From a virus (taxonomy: Duplodnaviria > Heunggongvirae > Uroviricota > Caudoviricetes), in IMG/VR virus record IMGVR_UViG_3300010213_000001, positions 180,701 to 244,700 of that record: 64,000 nucleotides of DNA; one strand, written 5' to 3'. The notes beneath the pieces were generated by a model. It saw only the letters and a list, made by a program, of their open reading frames with translations. It did not search any database and was not told where the DNA came from. Positions 18,887 through 59,347 of the stretch are shown one piece after another (position 1 is the first letter of the stretch; the number at the start of each line of letters is the position of its first letter). Made by a program: the position numbers and the translations under genes.

Positions 18887-18938
18887 ATAGATATTACTCT
18901 ATGTGCTTATTATTAGAGATTATCGATTTAGAGATAAA

Positions 18939-19199
18939 TTAGTTACCCTTAGGCTTAGTAGCTAAAGTTAATACAATTCTCTCGTTACCTGTCATACTCT
19001 TGTTTTTAATGTTCCCAAAGGTTGTGCGCTCACTAGCAGCTCCGTTGAAGAAGATTGTAATCTCACTATCATCTTTAATGCTAATACCAGCACCATTACT
19101 TCTAGCAGAAGAAATCAATTCTTGATAAGTCATTCCAGGGTGACATATAACTTCTGTAGACTGACTCATTTGACCAACTTTAACTTTGAATGTAGACAT
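18939..19199 (-). CDS. small beta-grasp / ubiquitin-like (ThiS/MoaD-like) protein candidate
   Basis: 86 aa, immediately downstream of the E1-like gene. Pattern KVKVG...TEV...PGMTYQEL......ITIFFNGAAS....NERIVLTL resembles the ThiS/MoaD layout. It ends KPKGN rather than GG, so conjugation competence is uncertain. Confidence 0.35.
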   Translation of the reverse strand: MSTFKVKVGQMSQSTEVICHPGMTYQELISSARSNGAGISIKDDSEITIFFNGAASERTTFGNIKNKSMTGNERIVLTLATKPKGN

Positions 19200-19257
19200 A
19201 ATTTTTGTTTATTTTTTGAGTTTCTTTATAAGAAGTAAATACACAAGTATACATTAA

Positions 19258-19953
19258 CTAAGCTTCTATAGATTGTACTGCCACTCCATCTGGAGCTCCA
19301 ACAGTATATTCTATATATGTACTAAATTTTTTGTCATTGATCATTTTCTTATATTGATCTTCAGCTAAGAGAGCAGCTTGTGCCATTGTACTTGCTACTG
19401 TAATTGGTGTACCACATGGGCTAACTTCTCTAGCTTCTGCCTCTTCATCAGTATAAAGAAAATTCTCATATGTCTTACAGCTTTCCATCTTCTGTGGAAT
19501 TATTGATAGAACAACTCCAGAGTATAAACCAACTCTAGTGTCTATAAACCCAAGAACTTTTCTATTTAGTTTGCATTTACTAAATATAAACTTTCTAGTT
19601 TCCATGCTATCAACTAAACAAAATACAAAACTGTCTTCCTTGGTAAGCTCACTTATATTATCCTCATCAATATGTCCTCTTGTTTCAACATTTACTGCTG
19701 GATTTATAGCAACCATAGCTCTTTTTACGGCTTCGCTTTTCTGGTTACCAATATCCTCATAGTTGAATAATTGATTTGGTTGATTTTCTGGTCCTACTAT
19801 GTCTTTATCCCAGAGAACAAAATTATCACATCCTAATCTAGTTAGTTGGTGTGCAATTCTGCTTCCTGTAGCACCACATCCAATAATGTGTATCTTGTGC
19901 GATTTAGTTTTTGAATAATCAAATATTGTGAAATGTCTTGAGATATCAATCAT
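19258..19953 (-). CDS. E1-like (ThiF/MoeB family) adenylyltransferase
   Basis: KIHIIGCGATGSRIAHQLTRLGCDNFVLWDKDIVGPENQPNQLF...GNQKSEAVKRAMVAINPAVNVE is the ThiF/E1 Rossmann signature (GxGxxG, acidic residue after beta2, NQxxQ, NP..V). Confidence 0.75.
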   Translation of the reverse strand: MIDISRHFTIFDYSKTKSHKIHIIGCGATGSRIAHQLTRLGCDNFVLWDKDIVGPENQPNQLFNYEDIGNQKSEAVKRAMVAINPAVNVETRGHIDEDNISELTKEDSFVFCLVDSMETRKFIFSKCKLNRKVLGFIDTRVGLYSGVVLSIIPQKMESCKTYENFLYTDEEAEAREVSPCGTPITVASTMAQAALLAEDQYKKMINDKKFSTYIEYTVGAPDGVAVQSIEA

Positions 19954-19955
19954 GA

Positions 19956-20807
19956 TTATATAATTTTAGATTCTGTTTTTGGTGTAGTTACGACTGTGGA
20001 GGTAGTGTTTTTATTGGATGATACAAGACTCAGCACTTCTGTAGAAAGAGAAGTGAATGTCTCATATACAAAATCTTTTTCACTGATAATCACATCATCA
20101 AGATAGCCTTCTCGTTTGGCTTGTGGGTGCGAATGCCAGTAATTGTTATTATCTATCCAAACACTGTATAGATGATTGAAAGAATCTTGGATTGTCTCTG
20201 TTTGGTCTTCACTTAATAGATTATCAATGGCATATTTTATCTCACCATCTTTGTACTCTAGTACTTCATTATAAAGCTTAACCATTAGATCATTTCCATC
20301 TTTTGTTTTTGCGTTTTCCTTTGTCTTTTCCTTTTCTTGCTTTTTTTCTTTTTTTGAACTTTTGCTGGTCCAGATGTCCAAGATTGAGTTGTTTACTTCT
20401 TTTGCCTGATCTTTTGTTATTATACTGGAGCTGTTTGATTCTTTTGATAGCGTCTTCGATTTCTCGTTTCCCTTATCTCCTCCATCAGTTTGAAAGCCTA
20501 TATTAGAAGCAGTAGAAGGACGATTGTTGTAACTGTAACCAGTATTGCTATTCCAAGAGCCGAAGGTGGAATATGCCATTCTTCCAATTCTAGATATTGC
20601 CTCTTCTATCTCTTTAGCTGTTTCAAGGACAATCTTAGGCTCCATATCACACTCATAGTTTGGCGTTTTAAATCTGATAGTTATATCATTACGTTTATTT
20701 ACGATCATCATGATATACCACTTATCATCATCTGGTTCTAAGTCCAAGAATTTTTGTATCATTGTTACATCTTGACCAGAAGGACTAACTCCCATATTGA
20801 CATGACT
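19956..20807 (-). CDS. JAB/MPN (JAMM) metalloprotease, 3' exon
   Basis: Track ORF starts at a TTG (20810..20808). Exon begins SHVNMGVSPSGQD... Joined to exon 1 (...WGH) it gives HSHVNMGVSPSGQD, an exact JAMM HxHx7Sx2D motif. Long Lys/Glu-rich low-complexity middle and a C-terminal WHSHP segment. Confidence 0.7.
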   Translation of the reverse strand, partial: SHVNMGVSPSGQDVTMIQKFLDLEPDDDKWYIMMIVNKRNDITIRFKTPNYECDMEPKIVLETAKEIEEAISRIGRMAYSTFGSWNSNTGYSYNNRPSTASNIGFQTDGGDKGNEKSKTLSKESNSSSIITKDQAKEVNNSILDIWTSKSSKKEKKQEKEKTKENAKTKDGNDLMVKLYNEVLEYKDGEIKYAIDNLLSEDQTETIQDSFNHLYSVWIDNNNYWHSHPQAKREGYLDDVIISEKDFVYETFTSLSTEVLSLVSSNKNTTSTVVTTPKTESKII

Positions 20808-21235
20808 CAAACATTACGTAATAGTTCGCTAGACTATTATCCGTCCTTTCGGTAAATGCTTTAACGTAAGCAACGGTATCGGACTATATCATCATCAATT
20901 AGTACTATATAGTACTAATTGAGTTCCGTGCTTCCACTCGCTTGAGTGTATAGATTTCATCTTCCTATTTATTTTATTAGGATGGTATATCTTAGTCTCT
21001 GAACCTTCTACCTATTACTAGGCAGGACGGCTGCGGATTGTCCATTGTAATATCTTTAACCTTTTTACCTTACCAAGATAGTTAATCTTGCCATTTACTT
21101 ATATTACTATAGTAAACTTGGTAGTTAAAGCTTTAGGAGTTCCCCGCAATTCTCGGAATTTAACTTATACCTATTACTAGGTATGGGTCACAGTCATTAT
21201 TTCTTTATTATTTAATAAGAAAATATTGTAGTTTT
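20808..21235 (-). mobile_element. group I intron (ORF-less, ~428 nt) in JAB gene
   Basis: Minus-strand reading shows P (AAUUGCGGGGAAC, from 21139..21156), Q (AAUCCGCAGCC, 21029..21043), R (GGUUCAGAGACUAAG, 20991..21005) and S (GAUAUAGUCC, 20881..20893) in the correct 5'-3' order. Exon 1 ends in U (…GGGUCAU). An internal guide GUGACCC about 45 nt into the intron pairs with GGGUCAU with a U•G at the splice site. The intron ends in G (…AAUGUUUG). Confidence 0.8.
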
Positions 21236-21508
21236 ATGACCCCAGCACTTTGGTGGAATAGCAGAATGCATCATAATTTCCGCTTCACCTTCTTCTGTAA
21301 CTTCTGTAGTTACTCCAGAACAACGTTGTGATGGAACATATGCATCAGTCACAATAAAAGATTTTTCATTTATTCGTTTTACCCAATAGAAAAAAGTGTA
21401 CTCTATATCAACTTTCTGTGTCATAGTTTGTACATATACAGCCTTGTCATATGGAATGAGCAATTCTAGTTCTTGAAATTTTGGAGCTATTTTGTTTAAA
21501 TTGTACAT
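21236..21508 (-). CDS. JAB/MPN (JAMM) metalloprotease, 5' exon
   Basis: ATG at 21508. ...TEVTEEGEAEIMMHSAIPPKCWGH supplies the upstream Glu and the first part of the JAMM motif. The track ORF reads through into the intron (…KTTIFSY*). Confidence 0.7.
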
Positions 21509-21551
21509 AATTGTGATTTAATTAATACAATTAAATACAATTAAATATTTT

Positions 21552-23276
21552 CTATTCAGTTACCTCACACCAATTTTTATATTTTCTACCTGCAGGATCT
21601 TGCGTATTTACAGACTTGAGCCACATGATAATATATATAAATAAATCAGGGTAGTTCTTTTCAGCTACAAGTTTGGGAATCTCAGAACTATAAATGTTTC
21701 CCCAGCAACTCTTGAAAGAAGCTACAACTATATCTTTAGTTGCCTCTGTACCTACCGGTACAATTGTTGTCTCACCAATAGGACTTATGCAATGTGGATG
21801 TGGTAACTTTTTATTATCCCATCCAGTAATTAACTGTTTAGGATCACATAGAATTAAAACTTCATTGTTACTTTCTTTAATACAGATATATAAATTTTCT
21901 GGTAATTTAAACTTTTTACCCGCTTCTTCAAAGTACATATCTTTTAGTTTAAAACATATGTTACCCCCAGCTTTAGTTTGAAATAGTCCATCAAAGTGCT
22001 CATTCTGGATAATATCTTTGGACAATCTTTCATTTACAGATTCTTGTTCCTTAACAGCTAATTGATTTACAAGTGCTGTCTTTGTTTCTGTATATTGAAC
22101 TAGAGTTTTATGATAACTAGTCATATTGTTTTCTAGCTGTTGTATATTTGATACTGTTGTTGCAATGCTAGAGTCAACGTTAGCTAGTTGCTTCTTTATC
22201 TCTAAAAGCCTAATATCGTTCAACTTTCTAGTTAAGTGAGCTATCTGTTCTTGTCTTTCTCTTTCTTTAGCGCTAATAAGAAACTTATTAAATTTCTCTC
22301 TAAAGCTTTCATAAAGCTGAGTCATAGCCTTCATATCAATCTTTTTTTCTTTGTCTAGCCCTGCTATAAGTTTATCTAGTGCTGGACCTCTAAAAGAAGG
22401 GAACGGTATATCTCCAACACGTGCAATATATAAAATATTATCTATAAATACTATATCGCTACTTATAATACTTATAGAACAATCTTTAATATCCTTATAG
22501 AAAACTTCTCCTCCTTCTACTCTAGCTTGCTTCAAGTCTTTATATTCTTCAAGGTTAGTTTCAGCTATTTCTTCTTCTAAGTTTGTTATAGTCTTTGCTA
22601 TATTCTCTGCCATTAGCTTGTCATTCTGCATTGTAGCTAATCTTAATGAAGAATAACTTCTTGGATCTTCCAGACCTTCTGCGTGAGATATTAAGTCCTC
22701 AATAGCTTTATCAAGCTTAGCAATATCAAAGTCTTTCAACTCTTTCTGTAGAATAGAGATGTGATTAATCTTGTTAGTTCGATCGTTTAGTTTCTTTATT
22801 TTTTTAGTAAATTCTTTATCATACAAAAAAGCTAGCTTATTTACTACATGAATTCTATCTTTACTAAGAGTAGTTTTAATTTTATTGAAAAATAAACCAG
22901 GTAACAATTCAACTTTTTCTACATCAATATCATCTTTACATAATGTGTAATCTAAAACAGCGAGGTTTGTACTACTTTCTTCTTTATGAAGTTCAGAAAC
23001 AATTAAATCATCATCTTTTATGTGTATTCTTAGAGGCATCTTCTCTACAGGCTTTACAGATATATTTTCTAGCACTTTATCTTTTTTAGAGAAGGAAGTT
23101 ACTCTAAGGACACCTGGCTCTACTTCATAACAACCGTCAATAACTAATTTAGTGTTGAAGTCATCAATGTAGACAGCTTCTACATCCTCTCCATCCACAT
23201 GTACCCTAAATTTAGTGATATCTTTGAGCTCTGGAAGTTCTGACAAAGGTTTGCCGCGTCCTAATGTTATAATCAT
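21552..23276 (-). CDS. large hypothetical protein (574 aa), central coiled-coil, Cys/His-rich C-terminal domain
   Basis: First gene of the JAB–E1–Ubl run. C-terminus ...KKLPHPHCISPIGETTIVPVG...SFKSCWGN is a possible E2-like (HPN-Cys-like) or other Cys-His fold. No firm assignment. Confidence 0.55.
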   Translation of the reverse strand: MIITLGRGKPLSELPELKDITKFRVHVDGEDVEAVYIDDFNTKLVIDGCYEVEPGVLRVTSFSKKDKVLENISVKPVEKMPLRIHIKDDDLIVSELHKEESSTNLAVLDYTLCKDDIDVEKVELLPGLFFNKIKTTLSKDRIHVVNKLAFLYDKEFTKKIKKLNDRTNKINHISILQKELKDFDIAKLDKAIEDLISHAEGLEDPRSYSSLRLATMQNDKLMAENIAKTITNLEEEIAETNLEEYKDLKQARVEGGEVFYKDIKDCSISIISSDIVFIDNILYIARVGDIPFPSFRGPALDKLIAGLDKEKKIDMKAMTQLYESFREKFNKFLISAKERERQEQIAHLTRKLNDIRLLEIKKQLANVDSSIATTVSNIQQLENNMTSYHKTLVQYTETKTALVNQLAVKEQESVNERLSKDIIQNEHFDGLFQTKAGGNICFKLKDMYFEEAGKKFKLPENLYICIKESNNEVLILCDPKQLITGWDNKKLPHPHCISPIGETTIVPVGTEATKDIVVASFKSCWGNIYSSEIPKLVAEKNYPDLFIYIIMWLKSVNTQDPAGRKYKNWCEVTE

Positions 23277-23278
23277 TT

Positions 23279-23929
23279 TTAAAAGTCAAGTATTTGTTTT
23301 TCCAGTTCTGATAGCCTTTGTACTCTGCTTTGTGGTTTTTGTACTGATTGGGTTTTTGAAGATTGAAGTAGAACGTCTTCTAACTCTCTTCTTAGAAGAT
23401 CATTTTCTGTCTCGACATCATTTTTTCTTTCTTTAGCTACATGTAGTTCGTTCTGAGTTTCAGATAAGCTTTTTCTAAGAATATTTAGTTCCATCTCTAA
23501 TAAACTTTGCTTATTCTTTAGATTCTCAACTTCTTGACTATCAGTACTATTCTTTATAGCTCCTAAGTTAGTACTTATCTTTGCTATTGCCTCTTCTAGT
23601 GATTGTTGTCTTGTATCGTTTTCTACAGGTGATACTGCCTTTATTACTCCGCTAGTACCAGGTAGGAATGCCTTACCAAGCTCTACTTCATTAGATTTTA
23701 CCATTTGATACATTTTACGTTTAACATCATCACTTCCTGGTATGTCTGTGTTGAAACTTTCTTGTTTTGTAGATGTGTTGCTAATTTGTTCTAGTATAAA
23801 TTCAACAGAATGATAATCTATTTCATTTGTAGAACAATTCCTAACAATAACTATATTACTATCATATGAAATGTCATCAATCTGCCAAGATTGACCCTTC
23901 ATCGTTATTATTTGTCCAATATCTAACAT
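23279..23929 (-). CDS. hypothetical coiled-coil protein
   Basis: ORF track; heptad-rich charged C-terminus. Confidence 0.5.
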   Translation of the reverse strand: MLDIGQIITMKGQSWQIDDISYDSNIVIVRNCSTNEIDYHSVEFILEQISNTSTKQESFNTDIPGSDDVKRKMYQMVKSNEVELGKAFLPGTSGVIKAVSPVENDTRQQSLEEAIAKISTNLGAIKNSTDSQEVENLKNKQSLLEMELNILRKSLSETQNELHVAKERKNDVETENDLLRRELEDVLLQSSKTQSVQKPQSRVQRLSELEKQILDF

Positions 23930-23966
23930 AAGATTAAAATATAAAAGAGGGGAGAAATCCCCTCTT
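23925..23966 (-). terminator. putative rho-independent terminator
   Basis: Perfect 7-bp stem gagggga / tcccctc with a GAAA tetraloop (23947..23964). A/T-rich tract downstream on the minus strand. Lies between the stop of 23995..24591 and the start of 23279..23929. Confidence 0.55.
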
Positions 23967-23994
23967 AAATTGAAACAAATAAATACTAGAAAGA

Positions 23995-24591
23995 TTAACC
24001 TTCTACAGGCGGCTCAGGCTGAATTTCTGAAAAGTTCAATTCTTGTGAATCGGCAAGCAACTGCTCAATAGACTCAATCTTCTCACGTAACGTCTTGATT
24101 TTAGCTTCAAGAGCTGTAACTTCAGGACTGTTGACAATTCTAGCAAGAGCTTTCTTTCTACGATCAACTTCTCGCTGATAAGGGATCAGTGCAGGCGTAT
24201 TGTAATTCTTTTTCGCCTTGATCAAGTTAGAAAGCTCCAAGGTAAAGTTTGTAGATCTGTCCATCATCTTTTGAACAAGGCTTTCTTCAGCAGCTTCGAT
24301 TAGACTTACTCTAGCTAGTCTCAAATCTTCTTCAGCTTTAGAAACCTCAAGTTCTAGAGCCTTGATAGTTGACTTCTTGACTTTGTTTTCCTCTAAAGTC
24401 TCTTGTTTCTGCAATTCTAGAATTTCTAACTCTGCTTTGGCATTACTCAACATTGCATTAAGCTCAGAGTGAAAGTTGTCAACTGCCTTAACAACGTACT
24501 TTTCAGCAAATTGTGTTGGCTCTAATTTTTGGTCAGCTACTCTTGAAGATACTAATGATACTAGATTTGCAACGATTGAATTTTTAGACAT
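23995..24591 (-). CDS. hypothetical coiled-coil protein
   Basis: ORF track; long heptad repeats. Confidence 0.5.
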   Translation of the reverse strand: MSKNSIVANLVSLVSSRVADQKLEPTQFAEKYVVKAVDNFHSELNAMLSNAKAELEILELQKQETLEENKVKKSTIKALELEVSKAEEDLRLARVSLIEAAEESLVQKMMDRSTNFTLELSNLIKAKKNYNTPALIPYQREVDRRKKALARIVNSPEVTALEAKIKTLREKIESIEQLLADSQELNFSEIQPEPPVEG

Positions 24592-46412: not shown

Positions 46413-46444
46413 AGAGATAGTTATTTAGAGTGAATGAAAATCAG

Positions 46445-46512
46445 TTCTTTCATCAGGAATCGAACCTGATATTGGAGTGATAGCTCCCGTGTTACCATTA
46501 CACTATGAAAGA
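46445..46512 (-). tRNA. tRNA-like gene with truncated anticodon arm (possible pseudo-tRNA)
   Basis: Minus reading: UCUUUCA-UA-GUGU-AAUGGUA-ACAC-G-GGAG-CUAUCA-CUCC-AAUA-UCAGG-UUCGAUU-CCUGA-UGAAAGA-A. Perfect 7-bp acceptor stem, 4-bp D stem and canonical T-arm. The anticodon arm has only 4 bp with a 6-nt loop (67 nt total), so decoding function is doubtful. Confidence 0.45.
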
Positions 46513-51880: not shown

Positions 51881-51994
51881 AGAGTCCAAGGGGAATCGAA
51901 CCCCTGCTTATTCACCTTATATCCTATCTAGAATAGGAAGGTTCTCTTTCTCCTGGGATTTGGAGCGTGCTACCACTACACTATAGACTCTTAC
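51881..51994 (-). ncRNA. tRNA-like element with ~45-nt insertion and non-canonical anticodon arm
   Basis: Minus reading: acceptor GAGUCUA…UGGACUC (6 WC pairs plus 1 G•U), D-arm GUG-UAGUGGUAG-CAC, T-arm AGGGG-UUCGAUU-CCCCU. Between them lie a 4-bp stem with 8-nt loop (CUCC-AAAUCCCA-GGAG) and an extra hairpin UCCUAU-UCUAG-AUAGGA. Total about 113 nt. Confidence 0.4.
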
Positions 51995-53942: not shown

Positions 53943-55271
53943 TTATATACTTAAAACTTTAAACCAATTGTCTTGATTGAGACCACCTGATAACTGAAGT
54001 TTATAAGCTTCTTTTATCAACTGTCCCATTTTAGGACCTGGTTGGATACCTCTTTCCATAAGTAGTCTAGAATTGACAATAGGTATAAACCTACCTTGTG
54101 CCATCATACTACTAACTCTATCATTCATATCATTTATGAATGTAAAGTCTGGAACTATAGGAGGTCTTCCCGATTCATCAGCTTTCATTGCTTTAACTAA
54201 ATCATTAAAAGTAAGTCCAGCCTTGAATAACTTATCTGCTTTGTGCGCCAACTTCTTATCTTTAATAGATTTAGAAGTATGTAACATATGCATTTCAACT
54301 AGTACTAGAATCTTATCAATCTCCTTTCTACCTCCAAATCCTGGAGCTGCTTCCAACATTACTCTACTAAGCATAATATCAGCTAATGGAACAGAATCAT
54401 CTTCATGTCCAATAGCTTGTATCTTTCCAGTTACAGGATGGATAGTAGTAGTCACAGATTTACCTAGGTCATGACACATCATAACTATTCTAGTAAAATA
54501 GTCATTAGCTGCATCTATACAGTGCATAGTATGTGAATAAGCATCTCCTTCTGGATGGTGTGTAGGATCTTGAGGTATACCTTTTAAGTCGTATAACTCA
54601 GGGAATATGTTATCCCAACCTACTTCATATATAAAATTGAAGAACATGCTAGGTTTGACAGCTTGCTTCATAGCTTTATATAATTCCATACCAAACCTTT
54701 CAGCTGGTAGATTGTCACTATTAAGACTCTTACACATATCAATCAACTCTTGGGTAGGAGTTAGATTGAACCTAGATATAAATCTAGCAGCTCTTAATAC
54801 TCGTAGTGGATCTTCAGCAAATGCTGCTGATACAGGTCTTGCAATCCTATTCTTTAAATCTCGAAGACCTCCATAAGGGTCTATCAACTCTCCTGTCAAT
54901 ACATTTTTAGCAATTGCATTGATAGTCAAGTCGCGTCTTAATAAGTCATCTAGAATAGAGGCATTAAATATTACCTCAAAGTCTTGATGTTTATTACCAA
55001 TCTTTTTCTCTCCTCTACATAAAGCAAAATCATACTCTTGGTTGTCTATTACAGCCTTTACGACTGCTAATGAACCTCCAACAGCTTCCTTTGTAATATG
55101 AGAAGAGAATGGTGTTAGGTACTCAACCAGTGTGTTGAAATTACAGTTTTCAACTGCAATATCAATATCATCACAAGGAATACCTAGAATTTCATCTCTA
55201 ACACACCCTCCTACATAATATAGGTTAATGTTTTTAGCTACTAGAGTCTTAGCTATGTTTGTAATAGACAT
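53943..55271 (-). CDS. cca: tRNA nucleotidyltransferase (CCA-adding enzyme) with C-terminal HD domain
   Basis: Pol-beta-like head domain YYVGGCVRDEILGIPCDDIDIAV (GG..RD....D.D motif). Then RRDLTINAIA and EDPLRVLRAARF motifs. C-terminal HD motif MMCHDLGK. Confidence 0.75.
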   Translation of the reverse strand: MSITNIAKTLVAKNINLYYVGGCVRDEILGIPCDDIDIAVENCNFNTLVEYLTPFSSHITKEAVGGSLAVVKAVIDNQEYDFALCRGEKKIGNKHQDFEVIFNASILDDLLRRDLTINAIAKNVLTGELIDPYGGLRDLKNRIARPVSAAFAEDPLRVLRAARFISRFNLTPTQELIDMCKSLNSDNLPAERFGMELYKAMKQAVKPSMFFNFIYEVGWDNIFPELYDLKGIPQDPTHHPEGDAYSHTMHCIDAANDYFTRIVMMCHDLGKSVTTTIHPVTGKIQAIGHEDDSVPLADIMLSRVMLEAAPGFGGRKEIDKILVLVEMHMLHTSKSIKDKKLAHKADKLFKAGLTFNDLVKAMKADESGRPPIVPDFTFINDMNDRVSSMMAQGRFIPIVNSRLLMERGIQPGPKMGQLIKEAYKLQLSGGLNQDNWFKVLSI

Positions 55272-58834: not shown

Positions 58835-59251
58835 TTATATTATATGCAAGCCAATTACCTGTTCAACAACTGGCTTTATCTTATTCCAATCTACACTTAG
58901 TTCTACTGGTTTGTAGATTGAAACTTGATCTATAAATAATATACCAGAGTCTCCTTGCTTTACAGCATCCTGTAGAACTATCTTTTGTCTACTAGAATTA
59001 TAAGTGATTATTATTGAAAACTCTTGCGCAACTTCAGATTGTAAAATCTTGAAGTTAAGAATTGTTTCTGTCTCTGTCTCAACTCTATCTATCAAAGATA
59101 AGGTGGATTTGCTGTCTCTCCAATTCTGAGCTGTAGCAAATGAAACAATAAATAATAAGACTAAAGTTAAAATGGTATTTTTCATATAAATTAAATTAGA
59201 TAGTAAGTAATGATTTAGTTGGGAAGAGAGGATTCGAACCTCCAATTTCAC
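58835..59251 (-). CDS. hypothetical secreted protein
   Basis: Signal peptide …MKNTILTLVLLFIVSFATAQ. Confidence 0.5.
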   Translation of the reverse strand: MKLEVRILSSQLNHYLLSNLIYMKNTILTLVLLFIVSFATAQNWRDSKSTLSLIDRVETETETILNFKILQSEVAQEFSIIITYNSSRQKIVLQDAVKQGDSGILFIDQVSIYKPVELSVDWNKIKPVVEQVIGLHII

Positions 59252-59338
59252 TGCGCTTTCGTCCTAATTTAATAAGAATTTGCTTATAGCTACAGACCCT
59301 CCTTAACAAGGGCGGTTCTACCAATTCACCTACTCCCC
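59219..59338 (-). ncRNA. tRNA-like element with ~50-nt insertion (non-canonical)
   Basis: Minus reading: tRNA-like D region GGU-GAAUUGGUAGA-ACC, stem GCCCU with 8-nt loop UGUUAAGG, then about a 53-nt insert sharing the 12-mer CUGUAGCUAUAA and CGAAAGCG with the P9 region of the AAA intron 2. Then T-arm GGAGG-UUCGAAU-CCUCU. Acceptor pairing is imperfect. Confidence 0.3.
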
Positions 59339-59347
59339 CATATTACA

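Follow-up and report, generated by a model that had tools for sequence, protein, structure and literature searches.

The locus analyzed here lies on the minus strand of a 64,000-nt stretch of DNA (hereafter the window; IMG/VR record IMGVR_UViG_3300010213_000001, positions 180,701 to 244,700) from a large uncultured phage, and consists of four tightly packed genes separated by gaps of 2 to 58 nt, which suggests cotranscription. The phage origin is inferred from introns, a homing endonuclease, tRNAs, gene packing and homologues on viral contigs, since no capsid or terminase gene was identified in the window. In the order in which they are transcribed, the features are as follows.

21552..23276, minus strand: gene for a 574-aa protein, with an N-terminal region and a long helical middle part of unknown function, followed by a C-terminal E2-like domain.
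21555..22034, minus strand: predicted E2/UBC-like domain (residues 415-574), containing HPH at residues 493-495 (21792..21800), the invariant Cys524 (21705..21707) and an N..D.AG motif (21588..21608).
21236..21508, minus strand: exon 1 of a JAB/JAMM protease (residues 1-91), containing the catalytic Glu36 (21401..21403) and ending with His91, the first His of HxH.
20808..21235, minus strand: group I intron of 428 nt between codons 91 and 92 (phase 0), with no endonuclease ORF (longest internal open segment, 38 aa).
21186..21197, minus strand: internal guide sequence of the intron, AUGACU/GUGACC.
19956..20807, minus strand: JAB exon 2 (residues 92-374 plus the stop codon), starting with SHVNMGVSPSGQD (Ser92, His93, Ser101, Asp104), followed by a low-complexity linker and a C-terminal extension.
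19258..19953, minus strand: E1-like adenylating enzyme of 231 aa, consisting of a ThiF domain only, with GxGxxG at residues 25-30 and the invariant crossover-loop Cys180 (19414..19416).
18939..19199, minus strand: ubiquitin-like (Ubl) beta-grasp protein of 86 aa, with the C-terminal tail Lys-Gly-Asn (18942..18950).

In the unspliced sequence the JAB gene appears as two separate ORFs, of 98 aa (21212..21508) and 284 aa (19956..20810). Joining 21508..21236 to 20807..19956 is in frame (273 + 852 nt) and gives a 374-aa protein that contains HSHVNMGVSPSGQD, an exact HxHx7Sx2D motif that is continuous and invariant in 21 homologues. The intervening 428 nt match the full length of the Rfam Intron_gpI model (RF00028) in a local scan, with 39.1 bits and E = 2.6e-8; this is below the gathering score of 50, and whole-window Rfam scans (gathering and E <= 0.01) do not list the element. 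Nevertheless, the P3, P4, P6 and P7 core sequences are all present, exon 1 ends in U and the intron ends in G. The P10 half of the guide sequence pairs with the exon-2 start AGUCAU (6 bp) and the P1 half pairs with the exon-1 end GGGUCAU (7 bp, with U.G at the splice site), an arrangement equaled by 114 of 200,000 shuffles. Additionally, the element folds better than all 100 shuffles (z = -3.8) and is the only part of the region with DNA similarity to known phages, those matches being intron-bearing phages. Thus, the intron position and exact junction given in the earlier note are confirmed by comparative and RNA evidence, although the evidence for splicing itself is indirect.

The spliced JAB protein carries the catalytic signature of JAMM/MPN+ metalloproteases, and E36, H91, H93, S101 and D104 are invariant in 22 aligned sequences. 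Profile similarity is weaker: Pfam Prok-JAB scores 17.3 bits, below its cutoff of 25, PADLOC JAB models match at 3e-4, and the family profile hits only JAMM deubiquitinases in the PDB but weakly, the best being RPN11 (E = 0.0056), JAMM1 and AMSH-LP. The 231-aa protein matches PF00899 at E = 3e-28 (98.9 bits against a cutoff of 28.1) and its adenylation-site residues are conserved. PDB matches include Uba1, Uba5, MccB and ThiF, and PADLOC Cap2 "E1-E2" models match at 1.7e-19. Cys180 (SPCG), which probably corresponds to C184 of ThiF and C250 of Uba5, is present in 67 of 67 distinct family sequences, as expected for the Cys of an E1~Ubl thioester.

The 86-aa protein is the only ORF of the window that matches the KGN-type Ubl HMM (E = 1.5e-4), and the profile of the family that includes it hits SAMP2 at 4.4e-4, followed by PF1061, RnfH and ThiS. 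These E-values are modest and unsupported by a structure, but they are consistent with a beta-grasp modifier of the ThiS/MoaD/SAMP type. Notably, the tail is not Gly-Gly. In relatives it is KGN, DNA, SNA, NNA or GAN, it is never Gly-Gly in 82 viral loci examined, and one relative out of more than 100 ends in GG (KAYGG).

The earlier note tentatively proposed that the HPH-Cys C-terminus of the 574-aa protein is E2-like, an idea supported by family conservation and by fold comparison, at moderate model confidence. A family HMM iterated over the flanks of the 82 JAB loci finds the 574-aa protein at E = 8e-30, and this family sits mostly in the position just upstream of JAB. The family shows (H)PH, then an invariant Cys, then N..D.AG, which hhalign places on HPN, Cys85 and PNPDDP, albeit at probabilities of only 30% and 1.8%. 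A His replaces the catalytic Asn, and the window protein has an insertion of about 24 residues between HPH and the Cys. There was no Pfam, PADLOC or NCBIfam hit for the window protein or for any of 18 family members, including the curated E2 models (UQ_con, Prok-E2_A to E and the E2 half of Cap2), and no hit in PHROGs or PDB sequences. A word-indexed protein search with the window's domain found nothing, and with the family alignment it found only one divergent subfamily. The single-sequence AlphaFold model of the domain was unusable (pLDDT 38), and Foldseek against the PDB gave no significant match.

The four genes recur as a unit. The JAB family is on 203 IMG/VR viral contigs, and of the 82 loci, 80 have the E1, 77 the E2-like gene and 69 the Ubl, several of the loci that lack one being cut at contig ends. 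The same module is found in 31 further loci, with ThiF in 28, the E2-like gene in 29 and the Ubl in 26, and the gene order of the window (E2-like, JAB, E1, Ubl) is shared with four loci (L008, L011, L018 and L045). By contrast, tblastn of the window JAB against 50,697 GenBank phage records found nothing, and a more typical family member found a single unannotated faecal phage record. Pfam and PHROGs have no model for the Ubl or the E2-like domain, and no description of the module was found.

Collectively, and in the absence of experimental evidence for splicing, adenylation, thioesters or conjugates, it is likely that these genes encode a phage ubiquitin-like conjugation and deconjugation module. 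In the inferred mechanism, the E1 uses ATP to adenylate the C-terminus of the Ubl and takes it onto Cys180 as a thioester, after which the Ubl is passed to Cys524 of the UBC-like domain and ends up on a target protein. The large N-terminal and helical part of the 574-aa protein probably chooses this target, since no separate E3 is present. The JAMM protease would trim Ubl precursors and remove conjugates; in agreement with this hypothesis, relatives have tandem Ubl repeats that each end in KGN, as well as tails that extend past the KGN or DNA motif, which implies trimming. As the protease can only be made once the intron is removed from between His91 and Ser92-His93, protease activity, and with it Ubl maturation and recycling, would depend on splicing. 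Ubiquitin-like conjugation in bacteria has so far been described as a host weapon against phages (CBASS Cap2/Cap3, Bil, Bub), and a complete set carried by the phages themselves would show that the virus side uses the same chemistry, as eukaryotic viruses do with ubiquitin. The non-Gly-Gly tails and the His-for-Asn E2 motif may point to different activation or transfer chemistry. It is about as likely as not that this is the first recognized complete ubiquitin-like conjugation system encoded by prokaryotic viruses, a distinct family of hundreds of uncultured phages (gut, termite and other metagenomes) used to tag host or viral proteins during infection, as a mirror image of Bil and CBASS, and additionally gated here by a self-splicing intron. 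The roles suggested in the earlier note, namely modification of virion or host proteins or an anti-defense decoy, likewise stay hypotheses.

One of the closest known systems is the Bil system (BilA Ubl, BilB E2, BilC E1 and BilD JAB deubiquitinase; operon type 6d of Iyer et al. 2006), which also encodes the four activities as separate genes and in which some Ubl precursors have short C-terminal overhangs that need trimming. Bil is host-encoded as an anti-phage defense and BilA ends in a conserved Gly; the present module is on phage contigs, its tails are KGN or DNA, and its E2-like domain is the C-terminal end of a 400-570-aa protein. Membership of Bil, raised in the earlier note, is not shown beyond functional analogy, and no sequence-level membership was detected, although no Bil models or sequences were available for a direct test. 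In type II CBASS, the E2 and E1 are fused in Cap2, Cap3 is the JAB, and the cGAS-like enzyme itself is conjugated without a free Ubl, whereas here the genes are separate, a dedicated Ubl is present and no CD-NTase was recognized among the flanking genes scanned. Bub (bacterial ubiquitination-like) pathways work through oxyesters with Ser and use a serine protease, whereas here Cys is invariant in both the E1 and the E2-like domain and the protease is a JAMM metalloenzyme. Archaeal sampylation (SAMP/UbaA/JAMM1) also has a small ThiS-like Ubl, a single-domain E1 and a JAMM protease, and the SAMP2 and JAMM1 hits described above are chains of the same PDB entry, 5lda; however, sampylation has no E2, its tails are Gly-Gly and it is cellular. 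The only previously described Ubl plus JAB pairing in phages that was found is that of the lambda/T1-type tail assembly proteins TAPI (Ubl) and TAPK (JAB-NlpC/P60), which lacks an E1 and an E2, is located in the tail gene cluster and involves different JAB and Ubl families.

A possible, though less likely, alternative is that the same machinery serves counter-defense or inter-phage warfare rather than modification of the phage's own proteins. The JAB could strip host Bil or CBASS conjugates while the E1, E2 and Ubl tag and inactivate host immune proteins, or the module could be a phage-carried defense island that excludes rival phages. All characterized bacterial relatives act in phage-host conflict, the E1 and JAB are closest to CBASS Cap2 and Cap3 models, and Hor et al. 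speculate that phage DUB domains counter Bil. Interestingly, in one subtype the module sits beside a retron-type reverse transcriptase, a typical defense gene, in 30 of 37 loci, but this link is absent from the window and is seen in 1 of 21 loci of its subtype, so the reverse transcriptase was rejected as part of the system in the window. Moreover, a simple decoy or deconjugase would not need its own Ubl, E1 and E2, yet most of the 82 loci keep all four genes; no target information exists either way.

It is more doubtful that the C-terminal chemistry is non-canonical, with the conserved Asn of the tails as the reactive residue (for example through E1-driven succinimide formation as in MccB) and a product other than a standard Gly-Lys isopeptide. 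The tails almost always carry Asn in the last two positions, MccB, which acts on a C-terminal Asn, is among the PDB relatives of the E1 (3.6e-7), and Bub systems show that bacterial relatives can use unexpected chemistry. However, the invariant Cys in both the E1 and the E2-like domain fits a normal thioester relay, the MccB match covers only the Rossmann core (residues 14-91) without an MccB-type peptide-clamp domain, one relative ends in KAYGG, and variants with DGA or DSA lack the Asn.

A sulfur-carrier system of the ThiS/MoaD or CysO-Mec+-MoeZ type, an analogy drawn in the earlier note, is unlikely. In this reading, the E1 would make the small protein a thiocarboxylate sulfur donor for a cofactor, a thionucleoside or a DNA/RNA modification, and the JAB would release the product or trim the carrier. 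The best NCBIfam names for the E1 are indeed ThiF and MoeB, the Ubl profile also hits ThiS and MoaD-type proteins, and the pairing of a ThiS-like carrier with JAB is known (Iyer et al. 2006). Nevertheless, the E1 scores far below every ThiF or MoeB cutoff (89 against 159 bits), matches Cap2, Uba1 and Uba5 better and has no rhodanese domain, and no sulfurtransferase or biosynthetic partner was recognized among the flanking genes scanned. Furthermore, a conserved partner with a UBC-like fold and an invariant Cys has no role in sulfur transfer, the tails are not Gly-Gly and poly-Ubl fusions exist.

Finally, that the interrupted JAB is a dead gene whose insert does not splice is very improbable despite the subthreshold Rfam score, given that both exons are in frame and keep every invariant catalytic residue, that the intron has all core elements, a correct U/G splice-site pair and a two-sided guide sequence, and that the same window has two other group I introns above threshold and a homing endonuclease.

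A search for close relatives with or without the intron found none in IMG/VR, a 244-kb MAG contig considered as a possible sister genome proved unrelated, and metagenomes gave one relative at 37% identity, without the intron. As in known self-splicing introns of phages (T4 td/nrdB, SPO1-like DNA polymerase, Staphylococcus Kayvirus lysin), the conserved catalytic core matches and the insertion lies in the most conserved, catalytically essential codons of a protein gene, although a JAMM protease of a Ubl system is, as far as could be found, a new host gene for a group I intron. The core shows DNA similarity to the Staphylococcus PALS_1 lysin intron and to Bacillus and Vibrio phage introns.

The window is AT-rich (31% GC), and its genes are densely packed on the minus strand. 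Five ORFs make up the region of interest, and the gaps between the genes are 2 to 58 nt, which fits one transcription unit:

21552..23276, minus strand, ORF of 574 aa with an E2-like C-terminal domain
21212..21508, minus strand, ORF of 98 aa containing JAB exon 1
19956..20810, minus strand, ORF of 284 aa containing JAB exon 2
19258..19953, minus strand, ORF of 231 aa encoding the E1
18939..19199, minus strand, ORF of 86 aa encoding the Ubl

The exon-2 ORF is recorded on a 244.7-kb JGI contig, and no cultured phage is close to the window. A jumbo-phage origin is therefore likely but inferred, as no capsid or terminase gene was found inside the window. In addition to these ORFs, the window holds tRNAs, AAA ATPases, a helicase, a GIY-YIG/NUMOD1 homing endonuclease (31085..32014, minus strand) and two group I introns that score above the Rfam threshold, located at 30829..31116 (92 bits) and 30389..30630 (51 bits). 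These two introns lie next to the endonuclease ORF, and the ORF just downstream (29809..30354) is only the C-terminal part of an AAA ATPase, so that gene looks split into several exons.

Joining 21508..21236 to 20807..19956 is in frame and gives a 374-aa JAB protein that contains HSHVNMGVSPSGQD, with the predicted ligated exons reading ...TGGGGTCAT|AGTCATGTC... The intervening 428 nt match the Rfam Intron_gpI model over its whole length at 39.1 bits, which is below the gathering score of 50, although the E-value is 2.6e-8 in a local scan and the conserved P3, P4, P6 and P7 strings are recognisable (AAUUGCGGG, AAUCCGCAGCC, GUUCAGAGACUA, GAUAUAGUC). This core is the only part of 18900..23300 with DNA similarity to GenBank phages, and the matches are introns or intron-bearing genomes, namely the Staphylococcus PALS_1 lysin gene, Bacillus SPO1-like phages and Vibrio phages. 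Exon 1 ends in U and the intron ends in G. Moreover, at 21186..21197 the intron reads AUGACU|GUGACC, a guide sequence whose 3' half pairs with the exon-1 end GGGUCAU (7 bp, with U.G at the splice site) to form P1, and whose 5' half pairs with the exon-2 start AGUCAU (6 bp) to form P10; only 114 of 200,000 shuffles give such a two-sided guide. The RNA folds with z = -3.8 against shuffles, and it carries no endonuclease-sized ORF. The strongest evidence is comparative: all 21 database homologues have an uninterrupted ...GHSHVNMGVSPSGxD..., the residues E36, H91, S92, H93, S101 and D104 are invariant, and the proposed junction restores exactly the most conserved motif of the family. Short of an RNA experiment, the intron and its boundaries can be regarded as established.

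The E1 is a plain ThiF domain (PF00899, 3e-28), whose nearest solved relatives are the active adenylation domain of Uba1 and Uba5, followed by MccB, ThiF and MoeB. Its best matches in a defence-system library are the E1 half of CBASS Cap2 models (1.7e-19), whereas it falls far below every NCBIfam ThiF or MoeB equivalog cutoff. Cys180, located in the crossover loop, is present in all 67 distinct family members. The JAB is weak against Pfam (17.3 bits against a cutoff of 25); however, the family profile hits only JAMM deubiquitinases in the PDB, though weakly, including RPN11 (0.0056), PSMD14, archaeal JAMM1, AMSH-LP and BRCC36. A second HSH motif, HSHPQAKREGYLDD, occurs in the C-terminal extension of the window JAB (residues 316-329, about 19860..19901), and reads HxHx7-Y-x2-D with Tyr in place of Ser. 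It is found in none of 71 other family members, and a pattern allowing any residue at the Ser/Tyr position appears in 0.2% of shuffles; it may be a degenerate second MPN-like element or chance. As for the Ubl, the 86-aa protein has no library match on its own. It is nevertheless the only ORF of the window that matches an HMM of small proteins found beside these genes elsewhere (E = 1.5e-4; the next ORF scores 3.5), and the family profile hits SAMP2 (4.4e-4), PF1061, RnfH and ThiS. The alignment has the ThiS-like ...DGD.V...G.KGN end.

The remaining component is the 574-aa protein. An HMM iterated from this protein over the flanks of 82 JAB loci recovers a family present in 77 to 79 of them, mostly immediately upstream of JAB. 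Only the C-terminal ~200 residues are shared, and their signature is (H)PH(V/I)-x2-G-x2-C-(L/F)-G, then a helix, then N-x2-D-x-AG. When these motifs were aligned with those of E2 enzymes by hhalign, the probability was only 30% with one alignment and 1.8% with an independent one, though the register is the same in both. The domain is concluded, at moderate confidence, to be UBC-like with an active-site Cys (Cys524). The window protein has an extra ~24 residues between HPH and the Cys, and because its sequence reads PHPH, it is ambiguous whether the invariant His is H493 or H495. Directly upstream of the module, only 2 nt from the 574-aa gene, lie two proteins of 216 and 198 aa (23279..24591, minus strand) that have no library match and look helix-rich by eye, and that have no counterpart in the other loci.

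The module is recurrent. The JAB family is on 203 IMG/VR contigs, and in 82 viral loci the E1 is present in 80, the E2-like gene in 77 and the Ubl in 69, with several of the loci that lack a component being truncated at a contig end. The same set is found in 31 more loci, which come from 30 of 185,579 GTDB species genomes, all of them MAGs and mostly gut Clostridia and Bacteroidales, plus one metagenome contig (the HSHVNMG search pattern excludes by design JAB homologues interrupted at the same codon). In contrast, only one unannotated GenBank phage record has a JAB homologue, and PHROGs has no family for the JAB, E2-like or Ubl parts.

The Ubls of these loci fall into two subtypes. One ends in KGN and includes the window protein, versions that continue past KGN, and tandem Ubls whose repeats each end in KGN. 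Among the latter, a 210-aa ORF three genes upstream of JAB in locus L064 and a 148-aa ORF in locus L054 carry three and two repeats, respectively, and the last repeat ends in KGNN, reminiscent of eukaryotic polyubiquitin precursors. The other subtype (KADNA) ends in K-x-x-N-A with 0 to 3 extra residues. None of the viral Ubls ends in Gly-Gly; the one family Ubl found with a canonical ...KAYGG end belongs to L088, a locus of the MAG Candidatus Alloclostridium intestinigallinarum, and aligns GG with the NA and GN of the other tails. The tandem repeats and extensions argue that the JAB processes precursors, with a mature end in the window protein that could be either ...KG or ...KGN. In some loci (the 206-aa ORF two genes upstream of JAB in L015/L017, and L085:2116-2727) the Ubl is fused in frame, right after its KADNA-type tail, to a ~130-aa domain, which in most KADNA-subtype loci is a separate gene next to the Ubl with no Pfam match. 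This domain could be a built-in substrate or a co-factor released by the JAB. Additionally, a retron-type reverse transcriptase (PADLOC RT_II-A, E = 4e-47) lies 1-4 genes downstream of the E1 in L003, L012, L038, L085 and about 35 other loci. It follows the module in 30 of 37 loci of the KADNA subtype but in only 1 of 21 loci of the KGN subtype, and it is absent from the window; in L003 and L004 an RNase H gene follows it.

These data suggest a path in which the E1 adenylates the Ubl, the Ubl moves to a thioester on Cys180, is transferred to Cys524 of the E2-like domain, and is then transferred to a target probably chosen by the large N-terminal and helical part of the 574-aa protein, since no E3 is seen. 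In this inferred scheme, the JAB matures and recycles the Ubl, and in this genome the JAB needs the intron removed. A counter-defence or inter-phage role is compatible with the same mechanism and cannot be separated from self-modification. Unusual Asn-based chemistry is a minority possibility. A sulfur-carrier role is unlikely, as there is no rhodanese domain, the E1 is not a ThiF or MoeB orthologue, and an E2-like partner is conserved.

Among known systems, the module works like Bil, in which the components are also four separate genes, but it is encoded by phage rather than host and its tail is not Gly-terminal. In sequence it is nearest to CBASS Cap2 and Cap3, but there is no E2-E1 fusion, and no CD-NTase was recognised among the flanking genes scanned. 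Bub uses Ser oxyesters and a serine protease, and sampylation lacks an E2. The only phage Ubl plus JAB pair found in the literature is the lambda-type TAPI/TAPK, which has no E1 or E2. No description of a phage-borne Ubl, E2, JAB and E1 module was found, although the literature surveyed was incomplete and a prior description elsewhere cannot be excluded.

Elsewhere in the window, the phage encodes a PolyA_pol-head nucleotidyltransferase, probably a CCA-adding enzyme (53943..55271, minus strand; 2.6e-25), and a DUF2828 protein (36572..37993, minus strand). Rfam also reports tRNA matches at 51881..51990 and 59219..59339 (minus strand) that are 110 and 121 nt long, far longer than a normal tRNA. 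These are not called by ARAGORN, which instead reports an odd tRNA with a 2-base anticodon at 46444..46512. These could be intron-containing or otherwise unusual tRNA genes.
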